A DNA stretch of 64,000 nt from Candidatus Nomurabacteria bacterium (GTDB taxonomy: Bacteria > Patescibacteriota > Minisyncoccia > Phycocordibacterales > SBAW01). A program made the position numbers and the translations under genes. Of this stretch, positions 145 to 62,920 are shown piece by piece. Every line of letters begins with the position of its first letter. Within the stretch, counting starts at the first letter, position 1. The notes beneath the pieces were generated by a model. It was not told the origin of the DNA. It was given only the letters and a program-made list of their open reading frames with translations, and made no database searches. The DNA lies in NCBI GenBank assembly GCA_943348815.1, contig CALQYT010000003.1, forward strand, positions 4,679-68,678, written 5' to 3'.

Positions 145-837
145 TCACCACCCCTTTTTGTCGAGCGCGGCCCTTGCGGCGGCCTGCTCGGCCTCTTGTT
201 TGCTTTTGCCCGAACCTTCGGCAAGCAACGTTTCTTTTATATAGACACCCACTTCAAACTTTTTGTCATGGTCGGGGCCGCTCTCGCTTAGCACCACATA
301 GTGCGGCGTAACGCCGTGATGCTCCTGCGCTTTTTCTTGGAGCGACGACTTGGCATCGAGCCACAACTTTTTGCGGACGATGTCGTCAATTTTGGGGAAG
401 AGATTCCTTTCTATAAATCCGCGCGCAGCGTCATAGCCTGAGTCTATATATATTGCGCCAACGAGCGCCTCAAACGCATTGGCAAGCAAAATGCTGCGCG
501 CGCGGCCGGTATCTTTGGCCTCGCCACGACTCAGCAACAAAAAATCATTCATACCGAGTGACTCGGCGACTTCGGCGCACGTAACCGCGTTAACCAACGC
601 CGCGCGGTAGGCGGTCAGCTCGCCCTCATTTTCTTGCGGATACTTCTCATACAAAAAATGCGTCGAAATAAGTTCGAGTACCGCATCGCCCAAAAACTCG
701 AGCCGCTCATTGTGCTCAAGGGTTTCGCCTCGGTGTTCGTTGAGGTAGGAGCGGTGCGTAAACGCCTGCCGCAACAACCCTAGGTCATTAAACTCAACCC
801 CAATCGACGCTTCGAACGATTTAAAATCTTTAGGCAT
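145..837 (-). CDS. rnc: Ribonuclease III
   Basis: 230 aa with the ERLEFLGDAVL RNase III catalytic signature and a C-terminal dsRBD-like region. Its start overlaps the stop of the upstream nusB-like gene by 8 nt. Confidence 0.9.
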   Translation of the reverse strand: MPKDFKSFEASIGVEFNDLGLLRQAFTHRSYLNEHRGETLEHNERLEFLGDAVLELISTHFLYEKYPQENEGELTAYRAALVNAVTCAEVAESLGMNDFLLLSRGEAKDTGRARSILLANAFEALVGAIYIDSGYDAARGFIERNLFPKIDDIVRKKLWLDAKSSLQEKAQEHHGVTPHYVVLSESGPDHDKKFEVGVYIKETLLAEGSGKSKQEAEQAAARAALDKKGW

Positions 838-1762
838 TTTTCTTCTGCTTTTGTTTTTCGGGCCTCGTAAGTTTGTCTACTGCTTTTTGCACAATCGGGA
901 GCATATCTTCGTAAAAATTGAGTTCGAGCGCGTCTTGCAATTTAAACCACCGTGCGTCATCCAACCCTCCTTTTTGCTCGAGCACAATGTCTACAAACGA
1001 TGCTTCGGCCAAAAAGTACGTGACATGTTTGCGCTTTTTGCCGGTCGCGGGGTCCGAAGCTACATACTCGTTCTCCCCCACCTTTTCTTTAAGTTTGATA
1101 TCGAGACCGAGCTCCTCTTTAATCTCGCGGATGGTACCGTCCTCGACCGTCTCGTTGGCAATCTCCGGGCTGTCGCCGATTTTGCCTTTGCTCAATGTCC
1201 AGTGGCCAAAGATATCGTGCACGAGCGCCAAGTATAGCTCGCCCTTATTCCGCGCATACACCACCGCGCCACCCAGTCGCTGCACGGGCATCTGGTCGTA
1301 GGGCACATCCTTTTTCTTTTTAGAAACTTCGTCTTTGCCGGGCTCGCCGAGCTCTTTGTACACGGCGCCCAACACGCCGTTGACAAACCGGCCGCTATTT
1401 TCGCCGCCAAACCGCTTTGCTAGTTCGATCGCCTCGTTGATAGCAACTTTAGCGGGCACTTTGCTGCGGTCGCTAAACAACAGCTCAAAGAGCCCAAGCC
1501 GCAACACGTTGCGGTCAACCGGTGCGATCCGCGGGAGCGGCCACTCAGGTGCGGCCTTAGCAATCACCAAGTCCAAGTCTTTGTGGCGCTCAATAGCGCC
1601 GGCCAACAACTCCTCCATAAACGGCAAATCGCCCGCTGCCGGGGCGAACTCTTGCGCATTACGCGCGAGCGCTTCTTTGGCCACGGCAAGGGACGCAGAG
1701 CGGAGATCCCACTCGAAGAGTGTCTGGAGGACTACTGAGCGTGATAGGTGCCTGTTGGCCAT
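830..1762 (-). CDS. nusB: NusB antitermination factor fused to a C-terminal Nudix hydrolase domain
   Basis: The N-terminal ~140 aa is NusB-like (RSVVLQTLFEWDL...). The C-terminal ~150 aa carries a Nudix box (E-x7-REIKEELGL). It is one uninterrupted ORF; I prefer the ATG at 1762, the track ORF extends to 1807. Confidence 0.65.
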   Translation of the reverse strand: MANRHLSRSVVLQTLFEWDLRSASLAVAKEALARNAQEFAPAAGDLPFMEELLAGAIERHKDLDLVIAKAAPEWPLPRIAPVDRNVLRLGLFELLFSDRSKVPAKVAINEAIELAKRFGGENSGRFVNGVLGAVYKELGEPGKDEVSKKKKDVPYDQMPVQRLGGAVVYARNKGELYLALVHDIFGHWTLSKGKIGDSPEIANETVEDGTIREIKEELGLDIKLKEKVGENEYVASDPATGKKRKHVTYFLAEASFVDIVLEQKGGLDDARWFKLQDALELNFYEDMLPIVQKAVDKLTRPEKQKQKKNA

Positions 1763-1861
1763 TCGTATTTTTAAGAACGCACGTCGCCCGCGACCCAAAC
1801 GATGCAAAGTTCAGATGCCGAAGCCGACGCCTTGGTCGGCTCCCCGACTAAAACGTCGGGG

Positions 1862-8121: not shown

Positions 8122-11100
8122 CTAAGGCTTAGACAAAACTTGGTTGATTCGCTTGTAGATCCGCTCAGGTGGGATAGACGACGCGCCAATCTTCTCGCCA
8201 TTTTCCTCAATGTAGTAACCGCTCTTCCATTTTTGATCCCACAAGAGCGCGTAGGTACCCGTACGCTTGCGATAGTTTTCGAACGCTTTGGCGTGTGTCA
8301 CTCGAATAGTTTTGGGTTCTGACCACTGAATAGGATCGCCCAAAATAAGCATCACGTTGGGGGTGCCCAGTGCTGCAGCAAAATGTCCGAGTCCTGTATC
8401 AGGAGTTACCACCACTTTAGACATAGCAAGAATGGGATTTATAAATTCGGCATTTTCTTTTCCTACTGAAAAACGGCGGCCAAAACGAGTCTTAAGCCGC
8501 TCCATAAGTGACGCGTACCGGCCTCTGCGCTCTGCGCTTGGATCTTCCAAAAATAAGACATGTGCATCTGCGTGTTCCGCAAATATTTTTGTAAGTAGTT
8601 CCTCCCAACGCTCAGGAGCATATTCTTTAGGCTGGACTCCCGCGCCCGCTGAAATAGTTATTACCTTTTCGTTGGGCTGAATATCATATTTGGTACGGAG
8701 TCGTTCAACCTGTTCAGTGTGGTCGGCACGTTTTCCTATAAACGATTCGACCTTCTTAATATCCTCAAACAATTTTTGACCGGTCATGAGCTCGAGATTC
8801 CGCATAACCCTCTGTGGGATCATGTCGTAACGTTTGGTCAATTTACCTTCGCGTGGCGCTTCCTCCATAAGCCAACTGTTCCAGTCGACGGACATGACAT
8901 AGCCGGGGTCACCCGCGCGCCTAGGTGCGACACCCAATGCTGCATAATCCTTATACGTTTTGTCTGCATTAATCACAAACCTCTCTCTGTTGGGCGCACC
9001 CTGCACTAGTGCTTTTACCTCTGCAAGATTGACGACACGCAAACCAGGATACTGTGTTTCCAGTGCTCCAAACAAAGCTTTGTTGTGCTGACTCACTACC
9101 GTAATCTGCTTGGTCGTACCGTTTTGTTTAAAATAGTGGTCGAGCGCCATGATAACCGGCATAGTTACGACGGAGTCGCCGACGGGACCATCAAGCATAA
9201 GGATTACTTCATCGGCACGCTCGAGACCCTTACGCAATGGCGAAGTTTTATAGAATTCCTCAGCAAAAGGCTTTCCTCCTACTTTTGACTCCTCGATAAA
9301 GATGTTTTCAATCTGCCGATAGGTACGGTCTAGCTGCATATCCACAAATCTGGAGAGAGAGTAGTCGGTGTTGTAGCGCTTATTGTGTTGCAACCGCTCT
9401 CCTTCAAATACTTGTTGTGCACGCGCCGGAAGATTTTCAAAATCTTCAAGCTCTTTGAGTCGGTTCAACACCGAACGATATTTAACGCGCAAATCTTTTT
9501 CATACTTAAGACGCTCTACTAACTCTTTCATTCGCTGGGAGTTTTGGGTATTGCGGTACACCTTCTCAAGATCGGTGTAGTCGTTTTTCATGCCGCCTGA
9601 ACCACGCTCATACCCATAGCCCCCTGCAAAGTGCCCTGGCTCTTCGGGCGAAGGTCCGTGTACCGGCGTGCGCAGCGGATCGGGATTCCTAAGACGCTCC
9701 AGTGGCGTGCGCGGAATAAAAGGAATAAAGGGCGGTGGATCAACCTCAGGGTCAGCAGGGACATTGATCGTGGTGTCCCACCACCGGATTGTTTCTTCTC
9801 GCGTAACTCTCCTTGTAATTGCATCTTCTGTACGATACGTAACTTTGTCAGGAACACTCGGCCTATCTTCGCCCACTTGTGTTGCAAGTATGCGTACTCC
9901 TGTGGCATCTTCGCGCACACGCATGGTCTGCGCCACTTCGGCAAAAGCACCTTTAAATACTGCCCGGCCTTTGGCATCAGTTTCAAATAATAGTCTTGCT
10001 ACTTCACTGTCGCGTGGAATGATTGCCTGACCATTGCGATCTATCGCCACCTCAAACACTTGGTTTTGAGTACCCTTAGATACTGAAAGCAGGAGCGAGA
10101 GTTTGCCAGTGCGCATCAATTCCTGCGCGTTAGCGCTATGTGGACCGTGGAACGAACCGTCGGGCCGCATACCTCGCACAGTGTATACATAGTCACCCGC
10201 GGCATTGACTCCGGTATTGTTAGGACCTCCATACCAAAGACGCAATTCATTTTTATCAAATACTGGCTTAGGCGTGTTGTTGTCGTACCATAGCTCGCGT
10301 TTTATGGTCTTGGTGTCGCCACGCTCGGCATAGTCTTGCACTGCCTCCCCGACACTCATGGGCGTGCGCACCGCTACCCGCTTACCCGGCTCGGTTACGG
10401 TAGTATCAATATAATTGATTGCCGTGTGAGGACCCCCCGTGAGGGCAATATCATGCTTTTTGAGCAAATCTTTTGCAGCATCAGTAAAGTTGCCATCACG
10501 GTCGGTGGTGAGCCCACTTACCACCACCTCGCCATTACGTATAAGCGTAACGGTGTCAGCAACTTTGGTGAGCGAAAAGCCGTCAGGCATACGGATATGG
10601 TTACTGCCGATCTGATCCATAACCGGCCCGCCCATAAGCATGTAAGAAGGTTCACCATTGATAAGGTGCGACGCCTTCATACGCACCCACTCAAGTGCCG
10701 TAACACTGTCTGGCGGATTGACCGGTTTTCCTTGCGTAAGCCGTTCAATCAGCCCCATCTGGTTTTTATTAAAGAAAGCCATGGTTTCTTGAGCCACAAG
10801 ACCAACCCCAAGACCAACCAACGCTCCTACGGTTGCTGCCTTAAATACTTTGCGATCTTTAATTTGGGAAAATAAAGCGTCTTTCCTTTCGCGTTCAGTT
10901 TCTCGCTCTCCCCTGACAAGCGCGCGCTGCGCGACCAGCTCAGCATTTACCGTGCTACTCGTCACATAACTATGGAGCTCCGAGTCGGTGCTTAGAGTCC
11001 CGTGAATGGCCGCGCGCAGTTGTGCGCGCAATACGTCAAGCTCACAACGCTCTTTAACAATGTTTTGAGGATTACTAAAATGTATGTAGTCTTTCTTTTC

Positions 11101-12270
11101 TTCATTACCCTTCTGTACCAAATCGTCTACTTCAGCCAAGGCCAAAAAGCCATCCTTAAATAAAACGTACCGCTGCTCAAGCGTCATCCCTGGCGGCTGA
11201 TTGCGTGCTATTATCACGAGCGACGTTTCCAGCCGCTGCGCAAGCTCGCCGGCCGATTTGGTTTCGTACCGGGTCTTTTCCATCTCTTCCCGCCGCTTTT
11301 GACCTGGCTCGATTTTTTTACCCATTGCCATTTCACGACTATGCAACGAACGGTCTTTCTCCATCCTTCGACTCTCACGCACCGCCGCGATACCACCCGC
11401 TACAAGCGCGGTTAAACCTAAACTTGCCCAAGCGGCGCCCCGACTGGTCAGCGCCTTGGCTCCAAAAACGCCTACACTCGCTGCCATGCCGAGTCCTGCC
11501 GCAACGGTCGCTTCGTTTACAAGTAGAAATTTGCCTACTTTGCTGGATTGTATTCTGTCCACAAGACCGTCAACGCGCTTGAGCTCTTGGTCGGTCCTCA
11601 CATTGCTGCGCGCACGGCCCGCAACCACTTCAAACTCCAGATCAAGCAGTTCTGCACCAGTGCCGTGTGCTACCTGTGCTTGCACCTGCCACACCACCTC
11701 CTCGAGATTGTCGGCAAAGAGCCGATTGCGCTCACCTGCTTTTTCATCCAACACCTCGCCCTTAGCTGCGGCTACCGACTCGATAATAGCTTTACGCTCT
11801 ATCGCAAACGCTTCGCGCACCTGTGGATCACGCATATCTTTGAGTGCATACTCCTGCACCATCTCTAGGATTTTCTTTTTTATTTCTTTCTCTGCAGGAG
11901 TATCTTCGAGCACGGCGCGTTTTTCGCCCGCATCTTTATGCACCGCATATTGTGCATACTCACTGGTAAACTGCTTAACCACGGCACGGATAGATGACTC
12001 TACCGCCTCGCGCTCAGGCCCGTCGGCAACGGTCTCCCGTAGGCGCTCCAGCTCGTGAATTTCTTTTTGAGCTTTCGTTATTTCCTTTTGGCGATAGTAA
12101 TCGTATGCATAGTTGTGCTGCCAGAGCTTTTTCAAGAAACCTTTGAACCCTTTTAATTGATCCGCATTTTCAGTAAGACGCGCCTCGGCAGTGTCGCGCG
12201 CGTTCTCTTTAACACTATGCGTGCGCTCGACTATGGCAATCTTAATTTTTTGCTTGCGTGGTGCTTCCAT
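8122..12270 (-). CDS. Large multi-domain membrane protein with a C-terminal GT9 (heptosyltransferase-like) glycosyltransferase domain
   Basis: 1382 aa. The N-terminal ~240 aa is charged/coiled-coil. There are predicted TM helices (KFLLVNEATVAAGLGMAASVGVFGA, WASLGLTALVAGGIAAV, ATVGALVGLGVGLVA). The C-terminal ~350 aa matches GT9 motifs (ILMLDGPVGDSVVTMPV..., TISAGAGVQPKEYAPERW, VVVTPDTGLGHFAAALGTPNVMLILGDP). Confidence 0.6.
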   Translation of the reverse strand: MEAPRKQKIKIAIVERTHSVKENARDTAEARLTENADQLKGFKGFLKKLWQHNYAYDYYRQKEITKAQKEIHELERLRETVADGPEREAVESSIRAVVKQFTSEYAQYAVHKDAGEKRAVLEDTPAEKEIKKKILEMVQEYALKDMRDPQVREAFAIERKAIIESVAAAKGEVLDEKAGERNRLFADNLEEVVWQVQAQVAHGTGAELLDLEFEVVAGRARSNVRTDQELKRVDGLVDRIQSSKVGKFLLVNEATVAAGLGMAASVGVFGAKALTSRGAAWASLGLTALVAGGIAAVRESRRMEKDRSLHSREMAMGKKIEPGQKRREEMEKTRYETKSAGELAQRLETSLVIIARNQPPGMTLEQRYVLFKDGFLALAEVDDLVQKGNEEKKDYIHFSNPQNIVKERCELDVLRAQLRAAIHGTLSTDSELHSYVTSSTVNAELVAQRALVRGERETERERKDALFSQIKDRKVFKAATVGALVGLGVGLVAQETMAFFNKNQMGLIERLTQGKPVNPPDSVTALEWVRMKASHLINGEPSYMLMGGPVMDQIGSNHIRMPDGFSLTKVADTVTLIRNGEVVVSGLTTDRDGNFTDAAKDLLKKHDIALTGGPHTAINYIDTTVTEPGKRVAVRTPMSVGEAVQDYAERGDTKTIKRELWYDNNTPKPVFDKNELRLWYGGPNNTGVNAAGDYVYTVRGMRPDGSFHGPHSANAQELMRTGKLSLLLSVSKGTQNQVFEVAIDRNGQAIIPRDSEVARLLFETDAKGRAVFKGAFAEVAQTMRVREDATGVRILATQVGEDRPSVPDKVTYRTEDAITRRVTREETIRWWDTTINVPADPEVDPPPFIPFIPRTPLERLRNPDPLRTPVHGPSPEEPGHFAGGYGYERGSGGMKNDYTDLEKVYRNTQNSQRMKELVERLKYEKDLRVKYRSVLNRLKELEDFENLPARAQQVFEGERLQHNKRYNTDYSLSRFVDMQLDRTYRQIENIFIEESKVGGKPFAEEFYKTSPLRKGLERADEVILMLDGPVGDSVVTMPVIMALDHYFKQNGTTKQITVVSQHNKALFGALETQYPGLRVVNLAEVKALVQGAPNRERFVINADKTYKDYAALGVAPRRAGDPGYVMSVDWNSWLMEEAPREGKLTKRYDMIPQRVMRNLELMTGQKLFEDIKKVESFIGKRADHTEQVERLRTKYDIQPNEKVITISAGAGVQPKEYAPERWEELLTKIFAEHADAHVLFLEDPSAERRGRYASLMERLKTRFGRRFSVGKENAEFINPILAMSKVVVTPDTGLGHFAAALGTPNVMLILGDPIQWSEPKTIRVTHAKAFENYRKRTGTYALLWDQKWKSGYYIEENGEKIGASSIPPERIYKRINQVLSKP

Positions 12271-12282
12271 TGCGGGTGCGCC

Positions 12283-12585
12283 TTAGGCGGACAAATACAA
12301 AGATTTAAACTCCACCAACTCTTTGGCAATGACTTCGTCGGCATGGGGCACATGGCGCGCGACAAATGCCTGCACTGCGGTGTCGCTCCCCGCGTCGAGT
12401 ATCTTTTCAAAATTAACCACTTCCTCCGGCGGCATTGCCGCAAGCATGGCGATGTTGATCCGTCGCTCCACCCGCTCAAGCAGGTCTTGCTTCATTTGAT
12501 CCTGTACCTCTTGCGGCAGGGCATCCGCACCTTTTTCGAATAAAATTCCCTCTATAAAAGAGCCCAATGCGTCTGAAGTCTCCAT
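12283..12585 (-). CDS. Hypothetical protein (about 100 aa)
   Basis: ORF with an AAGGGG RBS 4 nt upstream of the ATG at 12585 (the track ORF extends to 12648). No recognisable domain. Confidence 0.4.
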   Translation of the reverse strand: METSDALGSFIEGILFEKGADALPQEVQDQMKQDLLERVERRINIAMLAAMPPEEVVNFEKILDAGSDTAVQAFVARHVPHADEVIAKELVEFKSLYLSA

Positions 12586-12602
12586 ACCCCTTAGTATATA
12601 GC

Positions 12603-12632
12603 AAAAAACACCCCCGGCTGGAGGTGTTTTTG
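12603..12632. terminator. Bidirectional intrinsic terminator hairpin
   Basis: AAAAACACCCCC-GGCT-GGAGGTGTTTTT: a 9-bp stem with one mismatch, flanked by an A-run and a T-run. It is immediately downstream of the 12659..13486 gene. Confidence 0.45.
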
Positions 12633-12658
12633 CTGGGTACTTACCCAAGAAAATTAGT

Positions 12659-13486
12659 TTATTTCGCGCGAGAGATCTGCGACGCGATGAACGGGTCGAT
12701 ACCAGCGTACTTAGAAGGAGTGCTGGTAGCAGCCTGACGAACCGGAGCGTGGGTTACCGTTGCACGAGTCGGCGTCGAGCCAACCATCCAAGCAACGATT
12801 TTGTTTTGAATTTTCTTAACCGCTACAAGATATGCCGCGATCAAGCACCAGAGGACGAGGAAGCCCCAGTAGGCTGCCGTGCCCCACGTACCCAAGTCGA
12901 GACCCGTGTACGGAGCGGCTGCCAAAGAGACATACGGCTGCGCGCGGTAAACCGTCGGCTGTTGGTAGACCGGGTACTGTGCAGGATATTGATACTGTTG
13001 AGTGTAGATCGGCTGTTGCGGAGCATAGACCGGCTGTGATACCGGAACATACACCGGGTAAGAGCCGCCGTTGCTGCCACCGCCGGCGATAGTAACCGTC
13101 GTCGGAGCGTTGAAGATCGAGTGATCGTCGACGTTGCAGGAGTTGACTGCCGTACAGGTACTCACTTGAGTGAGCGTGTTGGTATTGGTGTTGACGTTGG
13201 TATTAGACGGCATGCCGCTAAAACCACCGAAGCCGCTGGTGAAGCCGCCGCCGCCAAAAAAGCCCGGCGAGCTGAAGCCACCCATACCACCGCCAAAACC
13301 GCCCATACCGAGATCGCCGCCGCCGATGTCACCGCCCATGGGGATCCACGAGTCGATAGTTTCACCACCGCCAGGGATAACCGGGAGGTCTGCTGCATAC
13401 GCCGGCAGTGCAAGCACAAAGAGCGCCGCAATAGCAAAAGCTGCCACAAGCGAGATTCCAAAAGTTTTCTTAGTAATTGTATTCAT
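12659..13486 (-). CDS. Secreted low-complexity (Gly-rich, then Tyr/Gln/Pro-rich) protein with a C-proximal TM segment
   Basis: Signal peptide (LVAAFAIAALFVLALPAYA), GGFGGGMGGF-type glycine repeats, a PVYxxPQQPIYTQQYQYP region, and a hydrophobic helix followed by KKIQNK. Confidence 0.55.
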   Translation of the reverse strand: MNTITKKTFGISLVAAFAIAALFVLALPAYAADLPVIPGGGETIDSWIPMGGDIGGGDLGMGGFGGGMGGFSSPGFFGGGGFTSGFGGFSGMPSNTNVNTNTNTLTQVSTCTAVNSCNVDDHSIFNAPTTVTIAGGGSNGGSYPVYVPVSQPVYAPQQPIYTQQYQYPAQYPVYQQPTVYRAQPYVSLAAAPYTGLDLGTWGTAAYWGFLVLWCLIAAYLVAVKKIQNKIVAWMVGSTPTRATVTHAPVRQAATSTPSKYAGIDPFIASQISRAK

Positions 13487-14527: not shown

Positions 14528-15145
14528 TTATGAATTACTCACCGACGACTGATACGCACCGACAAAGTCGGCCGTGACGATGTAGCGTTGAGACTTCGTG
14601 CCAAAGGAGTCGCACGTAACCAAGGTGAGGAACTTGCCCGTTGCAGGGAGTTCTACCACATCTTCGGTGGCATTGGCAAGCCTTACGCTAGTGACGCGGT
14701 AGCGATACTCCAAAGTACCCGAGTAGACGCTCACCACGTCCCCTGTTTTGAGATTTTGGATACCGTTGAAGGCTTTGAAGTTTTGGTTGTGGACAATAGG
14801 CAGGTAAGATGAGTGGCCAAATAACAGCACCGTGCCATCAACGCCCAGCTGCGCCGAGGTCGGATAGCGTACCGCGCCCTTAAGCAAGTCTTCGTCGAGC
14901 GCCTCGACATCGGTCGAGTCGGGGTTGGCGACGCTTACATCCAAACCAACTTTGGCTGCGACAACGCGCACCGGCAACTCGGCTACAAAGTTTTGAGTAT
15001 TAGTAACTTCGACACTCGTGTCGACAGGGGTGGAAGCGTGGTTGGAGATGGGGTCGGGCAGCAAGTCGAGCGCGCCAAATACGGCAAAAGCGAGCACAAA
15101 AAGTGCCACAAAGGTTACTGCAAAGCTCCAATACGTCTTTGCCAT
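14528..15145 (-). CDS. Sortase family transpeptidase
   Basis: N-terminal TM anchor, a conserved His (LLFGHSS) and the TLVTCD...R catalytic Cys/Arg signature. I prefer the MAKTYW start at 15145; the track ORF extends to 15199. Confidence 0.8.
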   Translation of the reverse strand: MAKTYWSFAVTFVALFVLAFAVFGALDLLPDPISNHASTPVDTSVEVTNTQNFVAELPVRVVAAKVGLDVSVANPDSTDVEALDEDLLKGAVRYPTSAQLGVDGTVLLFGHSSYLPIVHNQNFKAFNGIQNLKTGDVVSVYSGTLEYRYRVTSVRLANATEDVVELPATGKFLTLVTCDSFGTKSQRYIVTADFVGAYQSSVSNS

Positions 15146-15211
15146 GGTCGCTCTAGAGTACCACAGATTTAGTAGAGGGTCAACTTGCACACTTGACAAG
15201 TAATTGGTAGT

Positions 15212-23105: not shown

Positions 23106-24350
23106 GTGGCTGTCATGGATATTGGGGCCCTTGGCCTTTATGTATGCCTGTTTGTGGCCCTCTATTTTGAGGTCTTTTTGATGATTTCTTTCCTCGAAAA
23201 GCGCCCCGAAAAAAAGACCAAAATCTTGCCCCGTCACTACCCGACGGTTTCCATGCTCGTACCCTGCTTTAACGAGGGCAAGACGCTCGCCGGCACACTC
23301 GACTCCTTGTTGGCACTTGAGTACCCCAAAGACAAGTTGGACATCGTAGTTATCGACGATGGTTCGCGCGACAATACGGCAACGATCGCACAAGAGTACG
23401 TGGCAAAGCATCCGGAGCGGATTTCTTTCTTCCAAAAACCAAATGGTGGCAAATACACCGCGCTTAACTTGGGGATAGAAAAGAGCCACGGCGAAATTTT
23501 GGGCTGCCTCGATGCCGACTCGTTTGTAGTGGCTGATGCGCTAATAGAAGCGGTCAAAAAGTTTGAGACCGACGCCTCGATTATGGCCATTACTCCGGCA
23601 ATGAAAGTGTACCGTCCGCGTACGATTTTGGAGCTGATACAGCAGGTCGAATATACGTTCGGCATCTTTTATAAAAAAATGTTCGACAACCTTTCGGCCA
23701 TCAACGTATTGCCCGGCCCCTTCTCTATTTACAAACGTGCGGTGTTTGAAAAGATAGGCAACTTCCGCCACGCCCACAATACCGAAGACATGGAGATAGC
23801 CTTCCGCATGCACGCCAACGGGCTGCGTATTGTCAATGCACACACGGCCGAGGTATACACCACCGTGCCTAAGACGATTCGCGCTCTGCTGCGCCAGCGC
23901 ACGCGCTGGTCGCAAGGATTCCTCCAAAACGCCCGCGACTATGCCTACATGTTTTTTAACCGCCGCTACGGAAATTTTGGTCTCTTAATCTTGCCGTTTT
24001 GTCTTGTCTCGATGTGCGCCGGCATATACACCGCGCTCTACGCCGCCTACCGGGTATGCTCGTTTGCAACCGCGCGAGCACTAGAGTTTTTTGCCGCGGG
24101 TGTACCGCCGCACTTCCCCGTGGCACACCTCGACTGGTTTTACGTCAACACCACCATGATGACGTTTGTCGTCGGCTCGGTACTTTCGCTCACCCTCGTT
24201 GCTATCTTGCTTGGCAGCCGGTTGTCTGAAGCGCGACTGACCTTTAAATCGTTTGTCGTCTACTTTGCGTTTTTTGGTCTGCTTGCACCGCTTTGGTTGA
24301 TGCGCGCTACCTGGGGCGCACTCCTTGCACAAGAGAGCCGTTGGCGTTAG
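23106..24350 (+). CDS. Family 2 processive glycosyltransferase (PgaC/IcaA/NodC-like synthase) with C-terminal TM helices
   Basis: DDGSRDNT, LDADSF and QRTRWSQG (QxxRW) motifs, and four or more C-terminal TM segments. Confidence 0.8.
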   Translation: MAVMDIGALGLYVCLFVALYFEVFLMISFLEKRPEKKTKILPRHYPTVSMLVPCFNEGKTLAGTLDSLLALEYPKDKLDIVVIDDGSRDNTATIAQEYVAKHPERISFFQKPNGGKYTALNLGIEKSHGEILGCLDADSFVVADALIEAVKKFETDASIMAITPAMKVYRPRTILELIQQVEYTFGIFYKKMFDNLSAINVLPGPFSIYKRAVFEKIGNFRHAHNTEDMEIAFRMHANGLRIVNAHTAEVYTTVPKTIRALLRQRTRWSQGFLQNARDYAYMFFNRRYGNFGLLILPFCLVSMCAGIYTALYAAYRVCSFATARALEFFAAGVPPHFPVAHLDWFYVNTTMMTFVVGSVLSLTLVAILLGSRLSEARLTFKSFVVYFAFFGLLAPLWLMRATWGALLAQESRWR

Positions 24351-28477: not shown

Positions 28478-29449
28478 TCATGGCAGGGTAAAGTCCGCAA
28501 TACCCGCTGCCGTAAGGATTTTTTGCCTATGCTCCCCCTGGGCTACGCTCACTTGTTGATCCTCAATAGTGAGCGGCACCAAGACAAACGAGGTGTTTTG
28601 CTCTCCAAAATCAACCCGCACCGCTAAGCTATGGGTGGTCTCCCAGGAGAAGTTTTGGTCAAACAAAAAATTGCCCAGCGAGTAAAAAATAGCCTTACCC
28701 TTGTAAGTCTCAACCTCTTCTACCACATGAGGGTGCGATCCAATAACCAAATCGGCTCCTGCATCGATAAATGCGTGGGCATCCTGTTGCTGTGCTTGGT
28801 TAGAGTGCGTCTGATACTCCTGCCCCCAGTGGGCAAACACCACTATTTTCCAACAATTATTGGCATGCAGACGCACAACCTCGGCGAGTACCGGGGTGGA
28901 CGAGGCGTCAAAGGTTGCATTGTAGCCGACCAAGCAAAATGACCCATCTTTTGTCTGGAGTGTTGTAGAGGGATTCGATTCATTAAACGGTTGACCGAAG
29001 GACGGTACGCCCCACTGCCCTAAATTAAAACGGGTATCATCATATCCAAACTTTCCAAAATCTAAGGTGTGATTATTAGCGAGTGACACCGCATTGAAAT
29101 GCAAAGTAGTGAGAACATATTCCGCTAATTTTGGATCAAACGTAAATCGCAATATCTTGCTATTGCGCTGTGCAATGGACGCATTGGTAGTAATCGTCCC
29201 CTCCAAATTCCCTACCCGCAAATCTGCACTGGCAAACAAGTCCCGGGTGCTCGTGGCAATGAGTGACTCTTGCCCGAGATCATGCGCGGCGACAGCGACA
29301 TTTCTATCGAGCATAAGGTCGCCTACAAACAACACCCGCACCGGTTTGGGTAGCATAGGCGTCTCCGGAGCCCGCACCGGCGCAGGACTAGCACCAAGCT
29401 CGGCAGCAACAACCAGCAGTACGGCCGCGCCGATGATTACGTCCTTCAT
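28478..29449 (-). CDS. CapA/PgsA-family metallophosphatase-like capsule (poly-gamma-glutamate-type) biosynthesis protein
   Basis: Signal peptide, then [18 protein letters not shown] and GSHPH motifs typical of the CapA family. Confidence 0.7.
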
Positions 29450-34044: not shown

Positions 34045-35076
34045 ATGGACTTTTTAGCGGTGGGTGACACGGTGGTAGATGACTTTATCCGGTTGAAGGA
34101 TGCAACGGTGCACTGCAACATCGACCACGAAGCCTGCGAAATAAGTATGCGTTGGGGCGACAAGATCCCCTACGAGTTTCATAAACTGATTCCCGCCGTC
34201 GGCAACGCGGCTAATGCAGCTGTCTCGGCGGCGCGCCTCGGAGTATCTTCCGCATTTCGCGCTTACGTGGGCAAAGATGCGTACGGCGCACAGTGTCTTG
34301 ATGCCCTCCGCAAAGAAGGCATCGACACCACCTACGTCGAGACGGTTGAGGGAAAGTTCACCAATTATCACTACGTACTTTGGTTTGAGTCGCAACGCAC
34401 GATACTGGTTAAACACGAGCAGTTTGACTACCGTGCGCCTACGCTTGCGACCGCCCCCAAATGGCTTTACCTTTCTTCGCTCGGGGAAACATCGCTTCCT
34501 TACCACCATGCACTCATGGATATGCTCAAAAAATATCCTGAGTGCAAACTCGCATTCCAACCGGGGACGTACCAGATCAACTTTAGCGAGCACTGGGTCA
34601 ACCACAAAGAAGATTTTGCTGACGTGTATGCGCGTACTGAAATCTTTTTTTGCAACAAAGAAGAGGCTGAGCGGATTTTGGACAAACCTACGGGGAGCGA
34701 CCTCAAAGACTTACTCCGCAGCATCAAAGCACTCGGTCCAAAAATGATAGTCATTACTGACGATGCCCGCGGAGCCTACTCGATAGACGAGAGTGGCGCT
34801 ATGCTCCACTGCCCGCGCTACCCCGACCCTAGAGCTCCGTATGAAATAACCGGTGCCGGCGATGCGCTCGCGTCAACGACGACCGTAGCACTGTCGCTCG
34901 GCAAAGATTTGGCCACCGCATTGCAATGGGGCGCAACCAACGCCTCGGCAGTGCTACAAAAAATTGGGGCCCAAGAGGGCCTGCTCACGCGCGAACAGTT
35001 GGAAAAAAACTTGGCTAACCCACCGGCACCGTTTGTGGTAGAGTCGCTAGATAATAGCCCGGGCAAAGCATCATGA
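34045..35076 (+). CDS. PfkB-family carbohydrate/nucleoside kinase
   Basis: Ribokinase-fold with a C-terminal TGAGDA motif. Confidence 0.8.
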   Translation: MDFLAVGDTVVDDFIRLKDATVHCNIDHEACEISMRWGDKIPYEFHKLIPAVGNAANAAVSAARLGVSSAFRAYVGKDAYGAQCLDALRKEGIDTTYVETVEGKFTNYHYVLWFESQRTILVKHEQFDYRAPTLATAPKWLYLSSLGETSLPYHHALMDMLKKYPECKLAFQPGTYQINFSEHWVNHKEDFADVYARTEIFFCNKEEAERILDKPTGSDLKDLLRSIKALGPKMIVITDDARGAYSIDESGAMLHCPRYPDPRAPYEITGAGDALASTTTVALSLGKDLATALQWGATNASAVLQKIGAQEGLLTREQLEKNLANPPAPFVVESLDNSPGKAS

Positions 35077-35793: not shown

Positions 35794-36753
35794 CTATTTT
35801 CGTCCCGCTACTTTGCGGATTGCATCGGCGATATGCGGTGCGGTAAGTTTGTAGTGCTCGAGCAGCTCTTTTGGTTCGCCGGATTGTCCGAACATGTCTT
35901 TGACGCCAACAAACTCTATGGGAGTCGGACATTGTTGTGCCAGAACTTCGGCAATCGCACTTCCCAAACCACCGGCCACCTGATGTTCTTCGACTACCAC
36001 CACCGCGCGCGCTTCTTTGGCGTGTTGCACGATAGTTTGTACGTCTAATGGTTTGATGGTGTGTACATTAATGACCACCGTTGGTACTGCTTGCTCGATT
36101 TGTTTGGCAGCCGCGAGTGCTTCGTACAATAGCGGCCCTGTGGCAAACACCGCCACCTCGGCACCATGTGCAGACTCCCACATTACAGTAGCCTTACCAA
36201 TTGCAAAGGGTGTCTCGCGGGTCGTCATGACTGGCGTCTTTTCGCGGGCAAGGCGGATATACACGGGGCCCGGATGTGTCGCGGCCGCGAGCGTTGCTTT
36301 GCGCGCCTCTTCCTTGTCGCACGGGCTTACTACCGTCATCCGCGGTTGCACGCGCATGAGCGCCATATCCTCAAGCGCCTGATGCGTCGCTCCATCAGGA
36401 CCAACCGAGAGCCCGGCATGTGAACCGACAATTTTAACCGGCACATTGTTTAACGAAATAGTGGTGCGGATCTGCTCGTTGTTGCGGCCGGGGCTAAACG
36501 TCGCATACGAAGCAATAAATGGAATTTTACCGTAGTTAGCGAGGCCTGAGGCCACCGTGGCCAAATTTTGCTCGGCGACGCCCAGCTCGATGTAACGTTC
36601 GGGATATTTTTCTTTAAACGCCAACATGCGCGTGCTCTCGGCCAGGTCGGCACAGAGTGCCACGACATTCGGGTTGGTCGCTCCCAACTCAAGGAGCGCC
36701 TCGCCAAATCCGTCACGCGTATATGCAACTTTTATTTCTTCTTTATCACTCAT
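35794..36753 (-). CDS. Transketolase, C-terminal (pyrimidine-binding) subunit of a split enzyme
   Basis: ELGVAEQNLATVASGLA...SHAGLSVGPDGATHQALEDMALMR motifs. It overlaps the N-terminal subunit gene by 8 nt. Confidence 0.9.
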   Translation of the reverse strand: MSDKEEIKVAYTRDGFGEALLELGATNPNVVALCADLAESTRMLAFKEKYPERYIELGVAEQNLATVASGLANYGKIPFIASYATFSPGRNNEQIRTTISLNNVPVKIVGSHAGLSVGPDGATHQALEDMALMRVQPRMTVVSPCDKEEARKATLAAATHPGPVYIRLAREKTPVMTTRETPFAIGKATVMWESAHGAEVAVFATGPLLYEALAAAKQIEQAVPTVVINVHTIKPLDVQTIVQHAKEARAVVVVEEHQVAGGLGSAIAEVLAQQCPTPIEFVGVKDMFGQSGEPKELLEHYKLTAPHIADAIRKVAGRK

Positions 36754-37600
36754 GTTCGCTTTGTATTTTGCCCTTTAGCGTCCGCAGTTCGGTCAAAAAC
36801 TTTTGCGCCTCTTCTTTGTTGGGCGCCTTGCCGTGCCAGTGATAATCAAATTCTATTTCTTTAATCCCTTTCCCGGGGATCGTATGCGCAATAATGACCG
36901 TGGGCTTTTCGTATATTGCTTTGGCTTGCTCGACGCACGAAATAAAACCGGCGATATTGTGGCCGTCGCACTCGAGCACATGCCAATTAAAAGCCTCGTA
37001 CTTTTCGCGCAAACGCTCGAGCGGCATTACCTCTTCGGTGTAGCCGTTAATTTGTATGTTGTTGCGGTCTACAACGCCGGTAAGGTTAGAGAGTTTGTTG
37101 TTACCCGCAAACATCGCCGCCTCCCAAAGGGCACCCGCGTCGTGCTCGCCGTCGCTCATAAGGCAGTAGGTGCGGAAGGTCTTTTTATCCATACGCGCAC
37201 CGTAGGCAATACCCGCTGCTTGGCCAAGCCCCGCACCGAGCGGGCCGGAGGTTGTTTCGACGCCCGGCAACTTTTCGCGCTCAGGGTGACCCTGCAGGCG
37301 CGAGCCAAATTTGCGCAGCGTCAAACACTCTTCTACTGCAAAGTACCCCGCGTGTGCCATCGCCGAGTAGCGGACGGGCGTGATGTGACCGTTGGAAAGT
37401 ATCAAACGGTCGCGCTCCGGCCACTCAGGGTTTTTTGGATCATGGTTAAGTAAATAAAAATAAAAGGCAGTAAAAATATCGGCCATACCAAGCGGCCCTG
37501 CCGTGTGGCCGGAGCCGGCAGCAAGAAGCATCTCGATTAGCGTCTCGCGTACCGCCTCGGCTTGCAACTCAAGCTCTTTTATTTTTTGTGGAGTAATCAT
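36746..37600 (-). CDS. Transketolase, N-terminal (TPP-binding) subunit of a split enzyme
   Basis: GSGHTAGPLGMADIFTAFYF...SNGH...GPLGAGLGQAAG TPP-binding motifs. Confidence 0.9.
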   Translation of the reverse strand: MITPQKIKELELQAEAVRETLIEMLLAAGSGHTAGPLGMADIFTAFYFYLLNHDPKNPEWPERDRLILSNGHITPVRYSAMAHAGYFAVEECLTLRKFGSRLQGHPEREKLPGVETTSGPLGAGLGQAAGIAYGARMDKKTFRTYCLMSDGEHDAGALWEAAMFAGNNKLSNLTGVVDRNNIQINGYTEEVMPLERLREKYEAFNWHVLECDGHNIAGFISCVEQAKAIYEKPTVIIAHTIPGKGIKEIEFDYHWHGKAPNKEEAQKFLTELRTLKGKIQSEHE

Positions 37601-37612
37601 ACTACCTGGAGC

Positions 37613-38314
37613 TTACGGATTGACTATATTGTACAACTCTTTGTACGCGGCAACCGGGTCTTTGGCACCAAAAATTGCGTGGCCTACCACGAGCCGGTTA
37701 GCTCCTGCTTGCGCCAATTTTGCAGCATCGTCCACCGTGACCGACCCATCAACCTGGAGCGGCAACTCCGGGTAGCGGTTGCGCAACCGCTCGACCAAAA
37801 AGAGCGCGCGCTCGTCAAACGGCTCGCCCTGTTTGCCCTCGTGGTCGATCCCCATCACCTGGACAAAATCAAACTGTGCTTCAAACGGTTCGAGTTCGTC
37901 GGGCTGTGCCTGCGCACCAAGCGCCACCCCCGCTTGCACCGCAAAGGTTCCCATCTCATCGCGGCGGTCAACTACTAGTTGAACCGCTTCAACCGCGCCG
38001 GGCGCGTGGGCATGCACGACTATTTGGGTTGCCCCCGCCGCCAAAAAATCTTTTAGCTGCAACTCCGGATGCTCAATCATCAAGTCAAACTGAAAATCCA
38101 ACTCATCCCAAAACGGCAGTCCGTGCTCGGCCTCAACAATTTTTTTAAAACTCTCGGTGTCACGGTAGGGCCAGGTTTTGTGTTTGGCGTAGCGACCGTC
38201 AACCACATCGATCTGTACGTGCTTAGCGACACCACGCACCAAAGCTAAATGTTCTTCTAAGTCTTTAAACGACTGTGGCAACACCGCAGGAATTATTTCG
38301 ACCTTAGTGCTCAT
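37613..38314 (-). CDS. rpe: Ribulose-phosphate 3-epimerase-like
   Basis: (beta/alpha)8 ribulose-phosphate-binding barrel pattern (IIPAVLPQSF...VQVMGIDHEGKQGEPF). It sits in an operon with rpiB and tkt. Confidence 0.7.
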   Translation of the reverse strand: MSTKVEIIPAVLPQSFKDLEEHLALVRGVAKHVQIDVVDGRYAKHKTWPYRDTESFKKIVEAEHGLPFWDELDFQFDLMIEHPELQLKDFLAAGATQIVVHAHAPGAVEAVQLVVDRRDEMGTFAVQAGVALGAQAQPDELEPFEAQFDFVQVMGIDHEGKQGEPFDERALFLVERLRNRYPELPLQVDGSVTVDDAAKLAQAGANRLVVGHAIFGAKDPVAAYKELYNIVNP

Positions 38315-38750
38315 GGTCTAACTTTTCTATCCGGCGGACGTGCCGTGCGTCGCCTGAAAACGGCGTTTGTAAAAAAAGTTCCACGGCGCGCTTGGCTTCG
38401 TCTGTGGTTATAAACCGCACACCGAGCGACAGTACATTGGCGTCGTTGTGTTCGCGCGCAACTTTAACCACCTCGAGATTACCCCCGTAAAACTCCGCCG
38501 CGCGCACGCCATCAATCCGGTTAGCACTCATCGCCTCACCCTCGCCCGAGCCGCCAAGTACAATACCAAAACTCCCCTCATTGAGGGCGACCTTGTGCGC
38601 CATAGGCGCAATAAAATCTGGGTAGTCGTCTTGCGGATTAAGTTCCGAGGGCCCACAGTCCTCGACCTCGTGGTCAAGCGATCTTAAAAACTCGAGCAAT
38701 ACTTTTTTTAATTCAAACCCCGCGTGGTCGGATGCAATAAAAACTTTCAT
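38304..38750 (-). CDS. rpiB: Ribose-5-phosphate isomerase B
   Basis: MKVFIASDHAGFELK RpiB/LacAB signature. Confidence 0.9.
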   Translation of the reverse strand: MKVFIASDHAGFELKKVLLEFLRSLDHEVEDCGPSELNPQDDYPDFIAPMAHKVALNEGSFGIVLGGSGEGEAMSANRIDGVRAAEFYGGNLEVVKVAREHNDANVLSLGVRFITTDEAKRAVELFLQTPFSGDARHVRRIEKLDHEH

Positions 38751-38758
38751 ACTGTTTA

Positions 38759-47711: not shown

Positions 47712-48602
47712 ATGCGATGGGTATTGGTAAGCGGGATCCTACTCCTCCTAGGAATTGGGGCGTTTTTCTTTGCAAAAACTCGCCCCGCGGCGGAAGAGCC
47801 TGGGTGGCGAGCCATGATCGAAAAGGCCGGGCCGGAAAAAGCATACGCACAGTTTGCCGAATCGGTGGCTGCAGAGCCCCCCGGCGAGCAACACACCGCC
47901 GCACACAACTTTGGCGATGCGCTTTACGAGGAAAAAGGGCTCGCCGGACTGTCCGCGTGTGATAGTCGTTTTGGATACGGCTGCTTCCATCAATTGGTTG
48001 GACGAGTTATTGCAGAGCATGGACTCGGGGCAATTGCAGAAATACAACATGTGGTCGGTACATCGAGCGACTCCAACCACGGCGTTGGCCACGGCATACT
48101 CGCCTACCTCGGATACACACTGCCCAAACTCAAACAAGCACTCGCCGTTTGCCCAAGTGGTGGCCCGGCGCCGTGGGATTGCTCGGGGGGTGTGTTTATG
48201 GAATACAACTTCCGTACCATGCTCGGAGAGGGGCCGCGACTACCGGGCAACAATCCGTACGCTCCCTGCGATGCGCTCGAGGGTGTTCAAAAAACAGCTT
48301 GCACTTTTTGGCTGCCCGAATGGTGGGACCGTACTACGTTTGGAGCCGCCGCGACCTCAAGCCAGTCGTTTGCAAACATTGGCGCATACTGCGACGGACT
48401 CCCCAAGGCAGTGCACGGTGCATGTTACGGAGGCACCGGGTACGCGGCTGCCGCTGCGACAGAACAAAATGCGGAAGTCTCGACGTATCTTTGTAACGCA
48501 AGTACAGCCAATACTGCCTATCGTACACTTTGCAATCACTGCGCGGCATATGTCTTTACTACCCGCGGCAAACGTCCAAGCTGCACTCTAAACGAGTTTT
48601 AA
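47712..48602 (+). CDS. Cys/His-rich membrane-anchored protein, distant fifth member of the tandem paralog family at 56.4-61.0 kb
   Basis: N-terminal TM, then QHTAAHNFGDALY (H-x3-H-x2-GD), FGYGCFHQL and SNHGVGHGIL motifs shared with the four tandem paralogs. Many paired Cys. Confidence 0.55.
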   Translation: MRWVLVSGILLLLGIGAFFFAKTRPAAEEPGWRAMIEKAGPEKAYAQFAESVAAEPPGEQHTAAHNFGDALYEEKGLAGLSACDSRFGYGCFHQLVGRVIAEHGLGAIAEIQHVVGTSSDSNHGVGHGILAYLGYTLPKLKQALAVCPSGGPAPWDCSGGVFMEYNFRTMLGEGPRLPGNNPYAPCDALEGVQKTACTFWLPEWWDRTTFGAAATSSQSFANIGAYCDGLPKAVHGACYGGTGYAAAAATEQNAEVSTYLCNASTANTAYRTLCNHCAAYVFTTRGKRPSCTLNEF

Positions 48603-55895: not shown

Positions 55896-56384
55896 TACGA
55901 AAGCGCCAAGCAATGCTCCCAAGAGCCCACTTGCGATTACAAACAGGTACGCAAGCGGAACCGTTTGAGATACTGTAAAAGGAAAAACAGCGGCAGCAAT
56001 CTCGTCTCCGGTAACGGTTCTGAAACTCACCTGAAGCGAATACGATCCTCCTTGTTCAAAAGTATAGAGCAACGTGGTGGGCCCGAGCGGTTGGCGTCGG
56101 ATACCTGTTGCAAGTAGAGTATTTTTGTCCTGCGAAACGACGCGTGTCCATACCTCGTCAAATTTGGCCGGCTTTGTTTTAACGGTATCACTCCAGAGAC
56201 TAAAATCGAACCGCGCGCTTTGTCCCGCTGTAATACTGATTGGATCGTACCCAACATCAATGAAGTAGGTAGTACCTACTGGCTGCTCCCACGAAGCGCC
56301 AGTGCTATGAGCACTCACATACAAAGGAGCGCACAAAAGAGCAGCTGCAACGAGAGAGAAAATTATATTCATAAACTTGACCAT
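55866..56384 (-). CDS. Secreted, C-terminally TM-anchored beta-sandwich-like protein, possibly YcnI/CopC-like
   Basis: Signal peptide ...LYVSA, then a mature N-terminus starting with His (HSTGASWEQ). About 120 aa, then a C-terminal TM LAYLFVIASGLLGALLGAFVLYLF and a basic tail. Confidence 0.4.
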   Translation of the reverse strand: MVKFMNIIFSLVAAALLCAPLYVSAHSTGASWEQPVGTTYFIDVGYDPISITAGQSARFDFSLWSDTVKTKPAKFDEVWTRVVSQDKNTLLATGIRRQPLGPTTLLYTFEQGGSYSLQVSFRTVTGDEIAAAVFPFTVSQTVPLAYLFVIASGLLGALLGAFVLYLFMYRNK

Positions 56385-61749: not shown

Positions 61750-62288
61750 AGTGGTTCAAAAATACACTCACCTTTAGGTACCGACTGCGTTGGGCCCTTT
61801 TCCACCTCGACCGGTTGCGGATGGGCCAGAATGTATGGGTCGTGGCGCGTACCAGTAACTTGCCAGGACACGGTGCCGCCAGGAGCGCCTCCTCCAATAC
61901 TAAACTGGTTATTCTTTTCCTCCTGCTTGATATAGAGGTTGGGCATGGGCTGCTCTAATGCAAAAAATTGATAACGCGCATCTTTGTTTAGAGCATCCCA
62001 ATACGCCGGCAGCACGATAGTCACTTCCCCTTTAGAATCGAGCGTTGCAGTACCGTCATACAAGTTTTCAGGAGCATTAGACTCTACGAAGGAGTGATAC
62101 AAGATTTTGTTAGCGGGATCGAGCGGGTGATCGATAGCAAAAGTGCCGGAGGTTTTGGTGAGGGTACCCACGACCGTGAGATTACCTTTTATCTTAACGC
62201 TCCCCGTCACATTGATCGTCGCCGCAAGACCTACCAACGGCAAACACAACAAAAACAGCACGATGCTTTGGTAGAGTTTATTTCGCAT
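61740..62288 (-). CDS. Secreted family-B paralog 2
   Basis: Signal peptide (LYQSIVLFLLCLPLVGLAA), then FAIDHPLDPANKILYHSFVESNAPENLYDG...NLYIKQEEKNNQF...VSWQVTGTRHDPYILAHP. Confidence 0.6.
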   Translation of the reverse strand: MRNKLYQSIVLFLLCLPLVGLAATINVTGSVKIKGNLTVVGTLTKTSGTFAIDHPLDPANKILYHSFVESNAPENLYDGTATLDSKGEVTIVLPAYWDALNKDARYQFFALEQPMPNLYIKQEEKNNQFSIGGGAPGGTVSWQVTGTRHDPYILAHPQPVEVEKGPTQSVPKGECIFEPLCK

Positions 62289-62895: not shown

Positions 62896-62920
62896 CTCTT
62901 CTAGTATACTGTACGACCAT

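Follow-up and report, generated by a model that had tools for sequence, protein, structure and literature searches.

A lineage-specific two-gene module of Patescibacteria with an exchangeable C-terminal cassette, here a distant GT9-type glycosyltransferase domain

What is a heptosyltransferase-like domain doing at the end of a 1382-aa membrane protein in a bacterium that seems to have no lipopolysaccharide (LPS) for it to build? The question is raised by a gene in a 64,000-nt stretch of contig CALQYT010000003.1 (Candidatus Nomurabacteria bacterium, assembly GCA_943348815.1), called the window here. An earlier note, made from this sequence alone, described a large membrane protein ending in a GT9 domain and saw in it a dedicated cell-surface or S-layer glycosylation machine or a scaffold. 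We found the open reading frame (ORF) to be exactly as described, with Pfam PF01075 (Glyco_transf_9) matching its C-terminal part. The gene belongs to a large family of Patescibacteria in which a conserved N-terminal module of ~860 aa (the N-module) is followed by one of several unrelated tails, and in which a small DUF5663 gene accompanies the large one; GT9 is a minority alternative among the tails.

The ORF is far beyond chance, its full-length homologues P0001 and P0002 matching at E 1e-276 and 1e-259. A look-up of this exact protein in the contig index gave no record. Searching with the full-length sequence gave 17 relatives (1200-1600 aa), just two of which have GT9; the rest matched the first ~62% of the query and had different tails, including PF13641 (GT2-like) and one protein kinase. 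A phmmer search with residues 1-870 against 1.84 billion representatives, clustered at 50% identity, returned 888 at E<=1e-3 and 508 at E<=1e-30, giving a family of at least 888 clusters. The matches aligned with the module end to end, mostly from the protein N-terminus, and the tails after it have a median length of 489 aa; among the best 150 representatives, N-module homology ranges from E 1e-276 to 1e-90. Every homologue with a name or genome record is from a metagenome-assembled genome (MAG) of Patescibacteria, and the closest N-module, at 43% identity, is from Candidatus Kaiserbacteria. The N-terminal part is thus no mere anchor: it is the conserved, family-defining portion of the protein. 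Blocks conserved family-wide are three hydrophobic helices with invariant polar ends, LWYDNDTPxPxFDKNELxLWWGG, and PPxIPxxxRxPLE, the last of which marks the boundary between conserved module and exchangeable tail. Pfam, NCBIfam and PDB searches gave no match for the N-module, whose middle region (residues ~500-860) had already been left unassigned in the first reading, and apart from GT9 there was no Pfam or NCBIfam match anywhere in the 1382-aa protein.

For synteny we used 64 non-redundant loci, 63 of them from GTDB species genomes, each a different Patescibacteria MAG assembly. One locus was found per genome, so the gene is apparently single-copy. In 49 of the 54 assessable loci a DUF5663 gene directly precedes the large gene on the same strand, and in three it directly follows; in both loci where the large gene is split (see below) it lies upstream of the first fragment, so that the two genes are adjacent in effectively 54/54. 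No other neighbour is common to more than nine of the 64 loci. The DUF5663 product is small, acidic and helical, with no signal peptide or transmembrane (TM) helix. In the window its mechanical ORF spans 12283-12648 from a TTG, and translation probably starts at the ATG at position 12585 (METSDALG...). A terminator-like hairpin precedes this ATG and separates the operon from a Gly-rich gene; the DUF5663 gene and the large gene therefore form their own transcription unit, DUF5663 first. The N-module and its pairing with DUF5663 are undescribed in the libraries and literature searched, where we found nothing relevant on DUF5663, on heptosyltransferases of the Candidate Phyla Radiation (CPR) or on GT9 in Gram-positives.

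A second DUF5663-like ORF of ~140 aa, besides the upstream one, occurs shortly downstream in L045 (14898-15341), L050 (13123-13551) and L064 (11079-11510). The co-occurrence with neighbouring Gly-rich secreted proteins that had been suggested from the sequence did not hold: beyond the intervening hairpin, a homologue of the Gly-rich protein was found in 0/65 related loci, as was the case for the sortase and the other nearby secreted proteins. The Gly-rich protein itself (12659-13486, minus strand) carries a signal peptide, repeats of GGF/GGM and a stretch rich in Q, Y and P; its C-terminal part contains a hydrophobic helix with KK after it.

To survey the tails we clustered the post-junction sequences of 164 members. 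By far the largest class, with 119 members (~73%), consists of GT2-like tails of the GT-A type, which carry an SNDAD-type DxD motif; two of these members match PF13641, and the class profile weakly matches the GT2 structure 6yv7 (E 0.007). GT9 tails number 16 including that of the window (~10%), with the motifs GD, PKEY and DTGLGH largely conserved. A third class of 12 members (~7%) has no Pfam or PDB match, and 15 other tails form two small pairs and singletons. One member has an added Ser/Thr kinase in its tail. Pfam searches of six members of the GT2-like, third and singleton classes gave no significant match, and a PDB profile search with the third class returned low-complexity noise only; the DxD...D...DHH-like motifs of that class were seen by eye and are not claimed here. 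GT9-tailed proteins do not cluster by N-module, and their nearest N-module relatives are mostly GT2-tailed.

Tails are also exchanged between close strains. Three pairs of proteins with unrelated tails have N-modules that are 92% (P0095/P0096), 82% (P0147/P0163) and 71% (P0040/P0049) identical, and in all three pairs identity collapses right after RxPLE. The contigs of P0095 and P0096 (L068 and L069, from runs with neighbouring accession numbers) are syntenic around a non-homologous tail of ~1.5 kb, with nucleotide identities of 90.6% upstream and 95.3% downstream of it; the downstream match takes in the last 19 codons. Synonymous divergence between the two genes is a mosaic: near zero for residues 1-120, ~0.1-0.2 mostly up to residue ~480, and 0.45-0.8 beyond. 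This pattern indicates that the region after hydrophobic helix 3, and the tail especially, recombines between strains. In the near-identical allele pair, the nonsynonymous to synonymous ratio (pN/pS) is 0.3-0.43 at residues 510-630, and elsewhere in the N-module it is at most 0.12 before the junction-proximal windows. Such allelic replacement between GT-A and GT-B cassettes at a fixed junction inside one ORF is unusual. The window gene shows no compositional sign of recent tail acquisition: its GC content at third codon positions (GC3) is ~0.50, against 0.60 +/- 0.05 in 21 other confident genes, with N-module and tail alike in falling below the genome's value.

A possible objection is that the fusion is an artefact of assembly or annotation, a membrane protein having been joined to an ordinary GT9 gene. 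Split versions found elsewhere could be taken that way: in L002/L003 the genes for proteins of 1126 aa and 487 aa overlap by 20 nt, and in L071 DUF5663 is followed by genes for proteins of 953 aa and 734 aa that lie 24 nt apart. However, the window ORF runs without interruption, N-module and tail have similar GC and GC3, and the fused N-module-GT9 form recurs in 15 other 50%-identity clusters and in several independent assemblies (examples are P0001, P0002, L009, L011, L041, L043 and L068). Because of this recurrence we conclude that the ORF is neither a mis-assembly nor a spurious fusion of two genes, a concern the earlier note had raised, and the existence of natural split versions itself indicates that the fusion is genuine. 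We give the artefact explanation next to no credence.

Turning to the cassette itself, GT9 occupies the last ~380 aa of the window protein, in agreement with the first reading. PF01075 matches residues 1187-1308 at 36.7 bits against a gathering cut-off of 22 (E 3.8e-9), and reaches 55.2 bits in the relative P0087. The motifs quoted earlier are all present, namely VGDSVVTMP (residues 1030-1038), PKEYAPERW (1214-1222) and PDTGLGHFAAALGTPNVMLILGDP (1290-1313). All three are invariant or nearly so among 21 GT9-class sequences whose mean column identity is only ~28%, and G1031, D1032 and P1038 are invariant. The nearest solved relative is Escherichia coli WaaC, also called HepI (PDB 2GT1, 2H1H and 6DFE), to which hhalign assigned 88% probability over WaaC residues 167-280. 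From hhalign and pairwise alignment, K1215 corresponds to Lys192, and D1291, T1292, G1293 and H1296 correspond to Asp261, Thr262, Gly263 and His266 of HepI; VGDSVVTMP aligns with WaaC MGDVLHTLP, which pairs D1032 with Asp13. In HepI, Asp13 is the catalytic base, while Lys192, Asp261, Thr262, Gly263 and His266 contact the diphosphate and the heptose (bioRxiv 10.1101/2021.06.16.448588). The catalytic residues, whose absence would have refuted the first reading, are therefore in place. Judged by these motifs the cassette looks catalytically competent, and we infer that it is active.

The domain might instead be a degenerate, non-catalytic binding or scaffold module, given its extreme divergence from characterised GT9 enzymes and the fact that no donor pathway was found. 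We consider this very improbable, since the catalytic Asp and the donor-contacting residues that we tested are invariant or nearly so across the 21 sequences at so low an overall identity, and since P0021 and P0022 are soluble, stand-alone proteins of this subfamily. In one of these contigs (L070, 595-2960), P0022, of 399 aa, directly follows a SIS/bact-PGI_C sugar-phosphate isomerase gene; no N-module gene was seen in the stretch of that contig that we fetched. Within GT9, the sequence of the catalytic domain sets it apart as a new and distant subfamily. A helical pre-domain stands before it; this pre-domain is limited to GT9-class tails, and relatives of that class share it, the split-gene product P0018 among them.

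The GT9 Pfam match might also be read as a classical LPS-core heptosyltransferase in a diderm. Against this, the scores to the NCBIfam heptosyltransferase I/II and RfaC/RfaF equivalogs fall far under the cut-offs (TIGR02193, heptosyltransferase I, 31.7 vs 185.3; TIGR02195, 20.5 vs 134.6; PRK10964, 22.1 vs 437). WaaC is a soluble or peripheral protein of ~320 aa that acts on Kdo2-lipid A in diderms, and known WaaC, WaaF and WaaQ lack a 1000-aa N-terminal module; the cassette, in contrast, is the tail of a 1382-aa CPR membrane protein, comes after the helical pre-domain, and has no LPS or ADP-heptose genes in view. The earlier picture of a monoderm-like organism with a sortase and no LPS genes is a reasonable one: a sortase domain lies at 14528-15199, no LPS genes were seen among the ORFs scanned, and both homologue taxonomy and the shortened housekeeping genes near the large gene (DnaE 999 aa, PheT 599 aa, PheS 251 aa) point to a genome of Patescibacteria, probably a Kaiserbacteria-like one. 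A role in LPS-core synthesis is accordingly something we regard as hardly credible.

What donor and acceptor would such an enzyme use? The earlier note proposed a check for the ADP-heptose pathway; GmhA, GmhB, HldE and HldD were absent from the 64-kb window and from nine related loci. We also considered a PfkB kinase at 34045-35076 (plus strand) as a heptose kinase and rejected it, as it reaches 65 bits to rfaE_dom_I where the cut-off is 345, and matches ribokinase best. Conservation of heptose-contacting HepI residues is by itself insufficient to name the donor. The N- and C-terminal halves of transketolase have separate, neighbouring genes (35794-37600, minus strand) near this generic kinase and a class II aldolase. 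Two envelope-polymer genes elsewhere in the window are not linked to our finding: a PgaC/IcaA-like processive GT2 synthase (23106-24350, plus strand; 172 bits against an equivalog cut-off of 422) and a CapA/PGA_cap protein (28478-29449, minus strand).

As to the acceptor, GT9 includes protein-modifying heptosyltransferases, and the TibC/AAH autotransporter heptosyltransferases, which have a protein acceptor, illustrate that LPS synthesis is not the only use of the fold. A protein O-glycosyltransferase of this type (BAHT) might heptosylate or otherwise glycosylate a surface protein before export, perhaps its own linker or middle region. The cell seems to lack an LPS acceptor and the domain is tethered beside a large conserved beta-rich region, both of which suit this idea. 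On the other hand, TibC structures are present in the PDB, yet searches there returned only WaaC and WaaF, whether the query was the single domain or the profile, and gave no TibC/AAH match at E<=1; moreover, no autotransporter-like or Ser-rich substrate gene is conserved nearby and no heptose pathway was seen. We think a BAHT-type role improbable.

The N-module was modelled with AlphaFold2 on a 75-sequence alignment in two segments (Table 1). Residues 1-520 gave a helix-rich alpha/beta structure with a predicted local distance difference test score (pLDDT) of 86.5 and a predicted template modelling score (pTM) of 0.84, and residues 470-940 gave a beta-rich one (pLDDT 84, pTM 0.45). The first segment forms one confidently arranged unit in place of the long coiled-coil that had been expected in this part of the protein. 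The expectation of at least three TM helices fared better, in that there are three moderately hydrophobic helices (Kyte-Doolittle 1.55-1.9); family medians are 1.43 for helix 1, 1.46 for helix 2 and 1.4-1.6 over all three. In the model, helix 1 has a pLDDT below 50, helix 2 extends as a helix over residues 278-315, and helix 3 is part of a continuous 62-residue helix, 439-500. The hairpin of helices 1 and 2 has a conserved N-E at its start and R-E at its end; E299, R307, H310, R312, R326/R327, D394, E405 and E407 are near-invariant in the region that follows; and G486, G490, Q494 and E495 are invariant or nearly so in helix 3, the invariant Q-E being its C-terminal end. The middle region begins with a hypervariable sub-domain (residues ~510-640) and continues with a highly conserved domain bearing LWYDN(D/N)TPKPxFDKNELxLW(W/Y)GG at residues 660-682. 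Foldseek found no match in the PDB for the N-terminal domain and no significant match in the PDB or BFVD for the middle region.

Table 1. The large gene, its parts and its DUF5663 partner in the window (residues refer to the large protein; pLDDT values from AlphaFold2)
Feature	Residues	Position	Strand	Remarks
1382-aa multidomain protein		8122-12270	-	one uninterrupted ORF, ATG to stop; full-length homologues P0001, P0002
DUF5663 (PF18908) protein, ~100 aa		12283-12585	-	Pfam 41.1 bits; 12 nt upstream of the large gene
N-terminal domain	1-247	11530-12270	-	hydrophilic, alpha/beta; pLDDT mostly >90; no signal peptide
Hydrophobic hairpin, helices 1 and 2	249-271, 279-297	11380-11526	-	Gly/Ala-rich; Kyte-Doolittle 1.55, 1.75
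Helical region between helices 2 and 3	299-477	10840-11376	-	highly charged
Hydrophobic helix 3	478-500	10771-10839	-	GxxxG; Kyte-Doolittle 1.91
Beta-rich middle region	501-841	9748-10770	-	pLDDT 84, 95-98 in the conserved part
Junction motif PPPFIPFIPRTPLE	845-858	9697-9738	-	family consensus PPxIPxxxRxPLE; P846, P850, R854 and PLE conserved family-wide
Linker and helical pre-domain	859-1000	9271-9696	-	pLDDT <50 at 870-896; helices at ~897-939
GT9-type (putative GT-B) cassette	1001-1382	8125-9270	-	GD (D1032), PKEY (K1215), DTGLGH (D1291-H1296)

How the protein would sit in the membrane bears on every reading of its function. Sequence rules predict an N-in/C-out arrangement, with the N-terminus inside, the hairpin, a single crossing at helix 3, and the beta-rich region and the enzyme outside. 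The N-terminal domain is probably cytoplasmic because it is hydrophilic, has no signal peptide, and in some family members is preceded by extensions of up to ~440 aa that are likewise hydrophilic and free of signal peptides and TM helices (Pfam found nothing significant in four of five such members, and in P0087 only the GT9 tail). The region between helices 2 and 3 would also be cytoplasmic because its flanks are rich in K and R (median 6 each, for the 18 residues that follow helix 2 and the 19 that precede helix 3) and because it appears to pack with the N-terminal domain in the model with pTM 0.84. In the sequences examined, helix 3 is followed by an acidic stretch, and a Kyte-Doolittle scan found no further hydrophobic segment between helix 3 and the GT9 core, where two further peaks are core strands of the GT9 Rossmann domains. 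A tail outside also agrees with the Pro-rich linkers (PxPxP) that precede it in some members (P0009).

Other observations favour a tail inside. First, Leloir enzymes of the GT-A and GT-B types, and the kinase, need cytosolic co-substrates. Second, the GT9 polypeptide of the split variants (L002/L003 and L071) has no signal peptide or TM helix. Third, all three helices are only moderately hydrophobic and the short loop between helices 1 and 2 carries 2-3 K/R, so that a monotopic or re-entrant arrangement may apply. We also considered a two-TM topology with residues 299-477 outside and the tail inside, and judged it unlikely; both flanks of that region are strongly K/R-rich, and the pTM suggests packing. 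The predicted layout resembles that of Golgi type II glycosyltransferases, with a cytoplasmic N-terminus, a membrane helix, a stem and a C-terminal Leloir domain on the far side. The Golgi enzymes differ in having no homology to this family and in working in a lumen that imports nucleotide-sugars; we know of no nucleotide-sugar supply outside the bacterial cell.

We favour, at about an even chance, the reading that the protein is a membrane-tethered Leloir glycosyltransferase built on a lineage-specific scaffold together with DUF5663, and that cassette polymorphism diversifies an envelope glycan. The N-module, probably acting with DUF5663, would tether the enzyme to the cell membrane and position it there; the cassette would move a sugar from a nucleotide-sugar to an envelope-associated acceptor, either a lipid- or wall-linked glycopolymer or a surface protein; and a swap between GT2-like, GT9 and other cassettes by recombination at the junction would change the sugar or the linkage, giving strain-specific surface glycans. 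We infer three things here: the envelope nature of the acceptor, the view that exchange is selected for the glycan variation it brings, and the side of the membrane on which the enzyme works. The setting of the gene supports a housekeeping role in the envelope, since it is apparently single-copy and lies in a core-genome context in L069, where the pair follows ribosomal-protein, secY, adk and map genes and precedes ndk. An analogy by mechanism is offered by the Staphylococcus enzymes TarM (GT-B) and TarS/TarP (GT-A), in which different folds decorate wall teichoic acid and thereby create strain-level surface variation; alternative folds acting on one acceptor may be likened to GT2-like and GT9 cassette alleles on one scaffold. 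The Tar enzymes differ in being separate soluble cytoplasmic proteins, and they are not known to be homologous to the family.

Several points weigh against this favoured reading. The predicted topology puts GT9 outside a monoderm cell, where nucleotide-sugars are absent, which makes a simple cell-surface glycosylation machine of the kind first proposed problematic. The hypervariable sub-domain after helix 3 looks surface-exposed, again in agreement with a tail outside. No GmhA, GmhB, HldE or HldD gene was found in the window or in the flanks of GT9-type loci, and no candidate acceptor gene is conserved near family loci. The GT9 domain is very distant from characterised enzymes, as its TIGR02193 score (31.7 vs 185.3) and a PDB profile E of 0.054 attest, and profile comparison with WaaC aligns only the C-terminal Rossmann domain, the N-terminal one being recognised through its motif alone.

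A rival reading that fits the same topology is a host- or competitor-directed effector, akin to a polymorphic toxin or an AB toxin. The N-module would anchor the protein and, by way of its hydrophobic Gly/Ala-rich helices, form or use a translocation route, the beta-rich region would contact a partner cell outside, and the tail, released at the RxPLE junction, would act in the host cytoplasm, where the GT-A, GT-B or kinase enzyme would use host nucleotide-sugars or ATP; DUF5663 would be a chaperone or adaptor. This would explain why enzymes that require cytosolic co-substrates are predicted to be extracellular, everything after helix 3 being placed outside by the sequence-based topology. A sharp conserved junction followed by unrelated enzymatic tails on near-identical N-modules is a hallmark of polymorphic toxins such as CdiA, Rhs and LXG, which share with this family a conserved N-terminal region, a short junction motif and swapped, unrelated C-terminal enzymes. 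The small acidic helical DUF5663 partner, always encoded upstream, is comparable to the small helical partners encoded upstream in LXG systems; the hypervariable sub-domain adjoins the membrane; and some members (P0009) have the PxPxP linkers before the tail.

Yet the family departs from polymorphic toxins in several ways. There is no conserved downstream gene that could confer immunity (in the window the neighbour is a convergent tRNA synthetase gene), no link to type V, VI or VII secretion systems, and no conserved secretion gene nearby. There are only about three tail classes, mostly glycosyltransferases, with 73% of members in one class, and the gene is apparently single-copy in a core-genome setting. 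The protein has no signal peptide and no Pfam or NCBIfam match in its N-module, and the split-variant GT9 protein is without any export signal. PADLOC and PHROGs gave chance-level matches only, with no toxin-like match there or in the PDB. On balance we think the effector interpretation unlikely, though it is the rival we take most seriously. Somewhat more doubtful still is a specific form of it, in which a Patescibacteria envelope apparatus displays exchangeable cytosol-type enzymes outside the membrane and delivers them to the attached host, possibly after cleavage at RxPLE. If true, this would be a new kind of effector system, dependent on contact, with payloads that add sugars or phosphate to targets in the host.

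In the window, the large gene lies among proS, dnaE and rnhB, and its 3' end abuts the tRNA synthetase gene, which is of class II. At 830-1807 (minus strand) a single 325-aa ORF encodes a NusB-NUDIX hydrolase fusion; homologous ORFs lie near the family gene in five other loci. Many window ORFs have no Pfam match. Two DUF7483 matches (E 1e-81) and a SPRY domain occur in a 1883-aa protein (41050-46701, minus strand), probably a giant one of the cell surface, which adjoins a 393-aa protein with a bacterial surface Ig-like domain (46723-47904, minus strand). Two tandem arrays, both on the minus strand and without Pfam match, consist of four paralogous ORFs of 383-396 aa that are 22-26% identical and each have an N-terminal hydrophobic helix (56369-61015), and of three paralogous ORFs of 194-251 aa that are 48-68% identical, one with a (SYYQ)n repeat (60994-62988). 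An IS200-like Y1 transposase gene (38759-39436, plus strand) sits in the sole clearly low-GC stretch (38001-40000, GC 0.45 vs ~0.52 overall).

Patescibacteria make up a large share of bacterial diversity and live attached to other microbes, and almost none of their envelope or host-interaction proteins have been characterised. Our analysis defines a widespread, lineage-specific two-gene module whose core has no detectable similarity to solved structures and whose catalytic end is swapped between close strains; there is a real chance that the N-module/DUF5663 system as a whole is something new. Its GT9 cassette extends the GT9 family to bacteria that appear to be monoderm and LPS-free. The tension between the predicted topology and the need for nucleotide-sugars poses a sharp question that is open to experiment. 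An enzyme that proved extracellular or host-delivered would make the module a new effector system; one that decorates the cell surface would make it a compact means of glycan diversification, relevant to phage and host recognition in these episymbionts.

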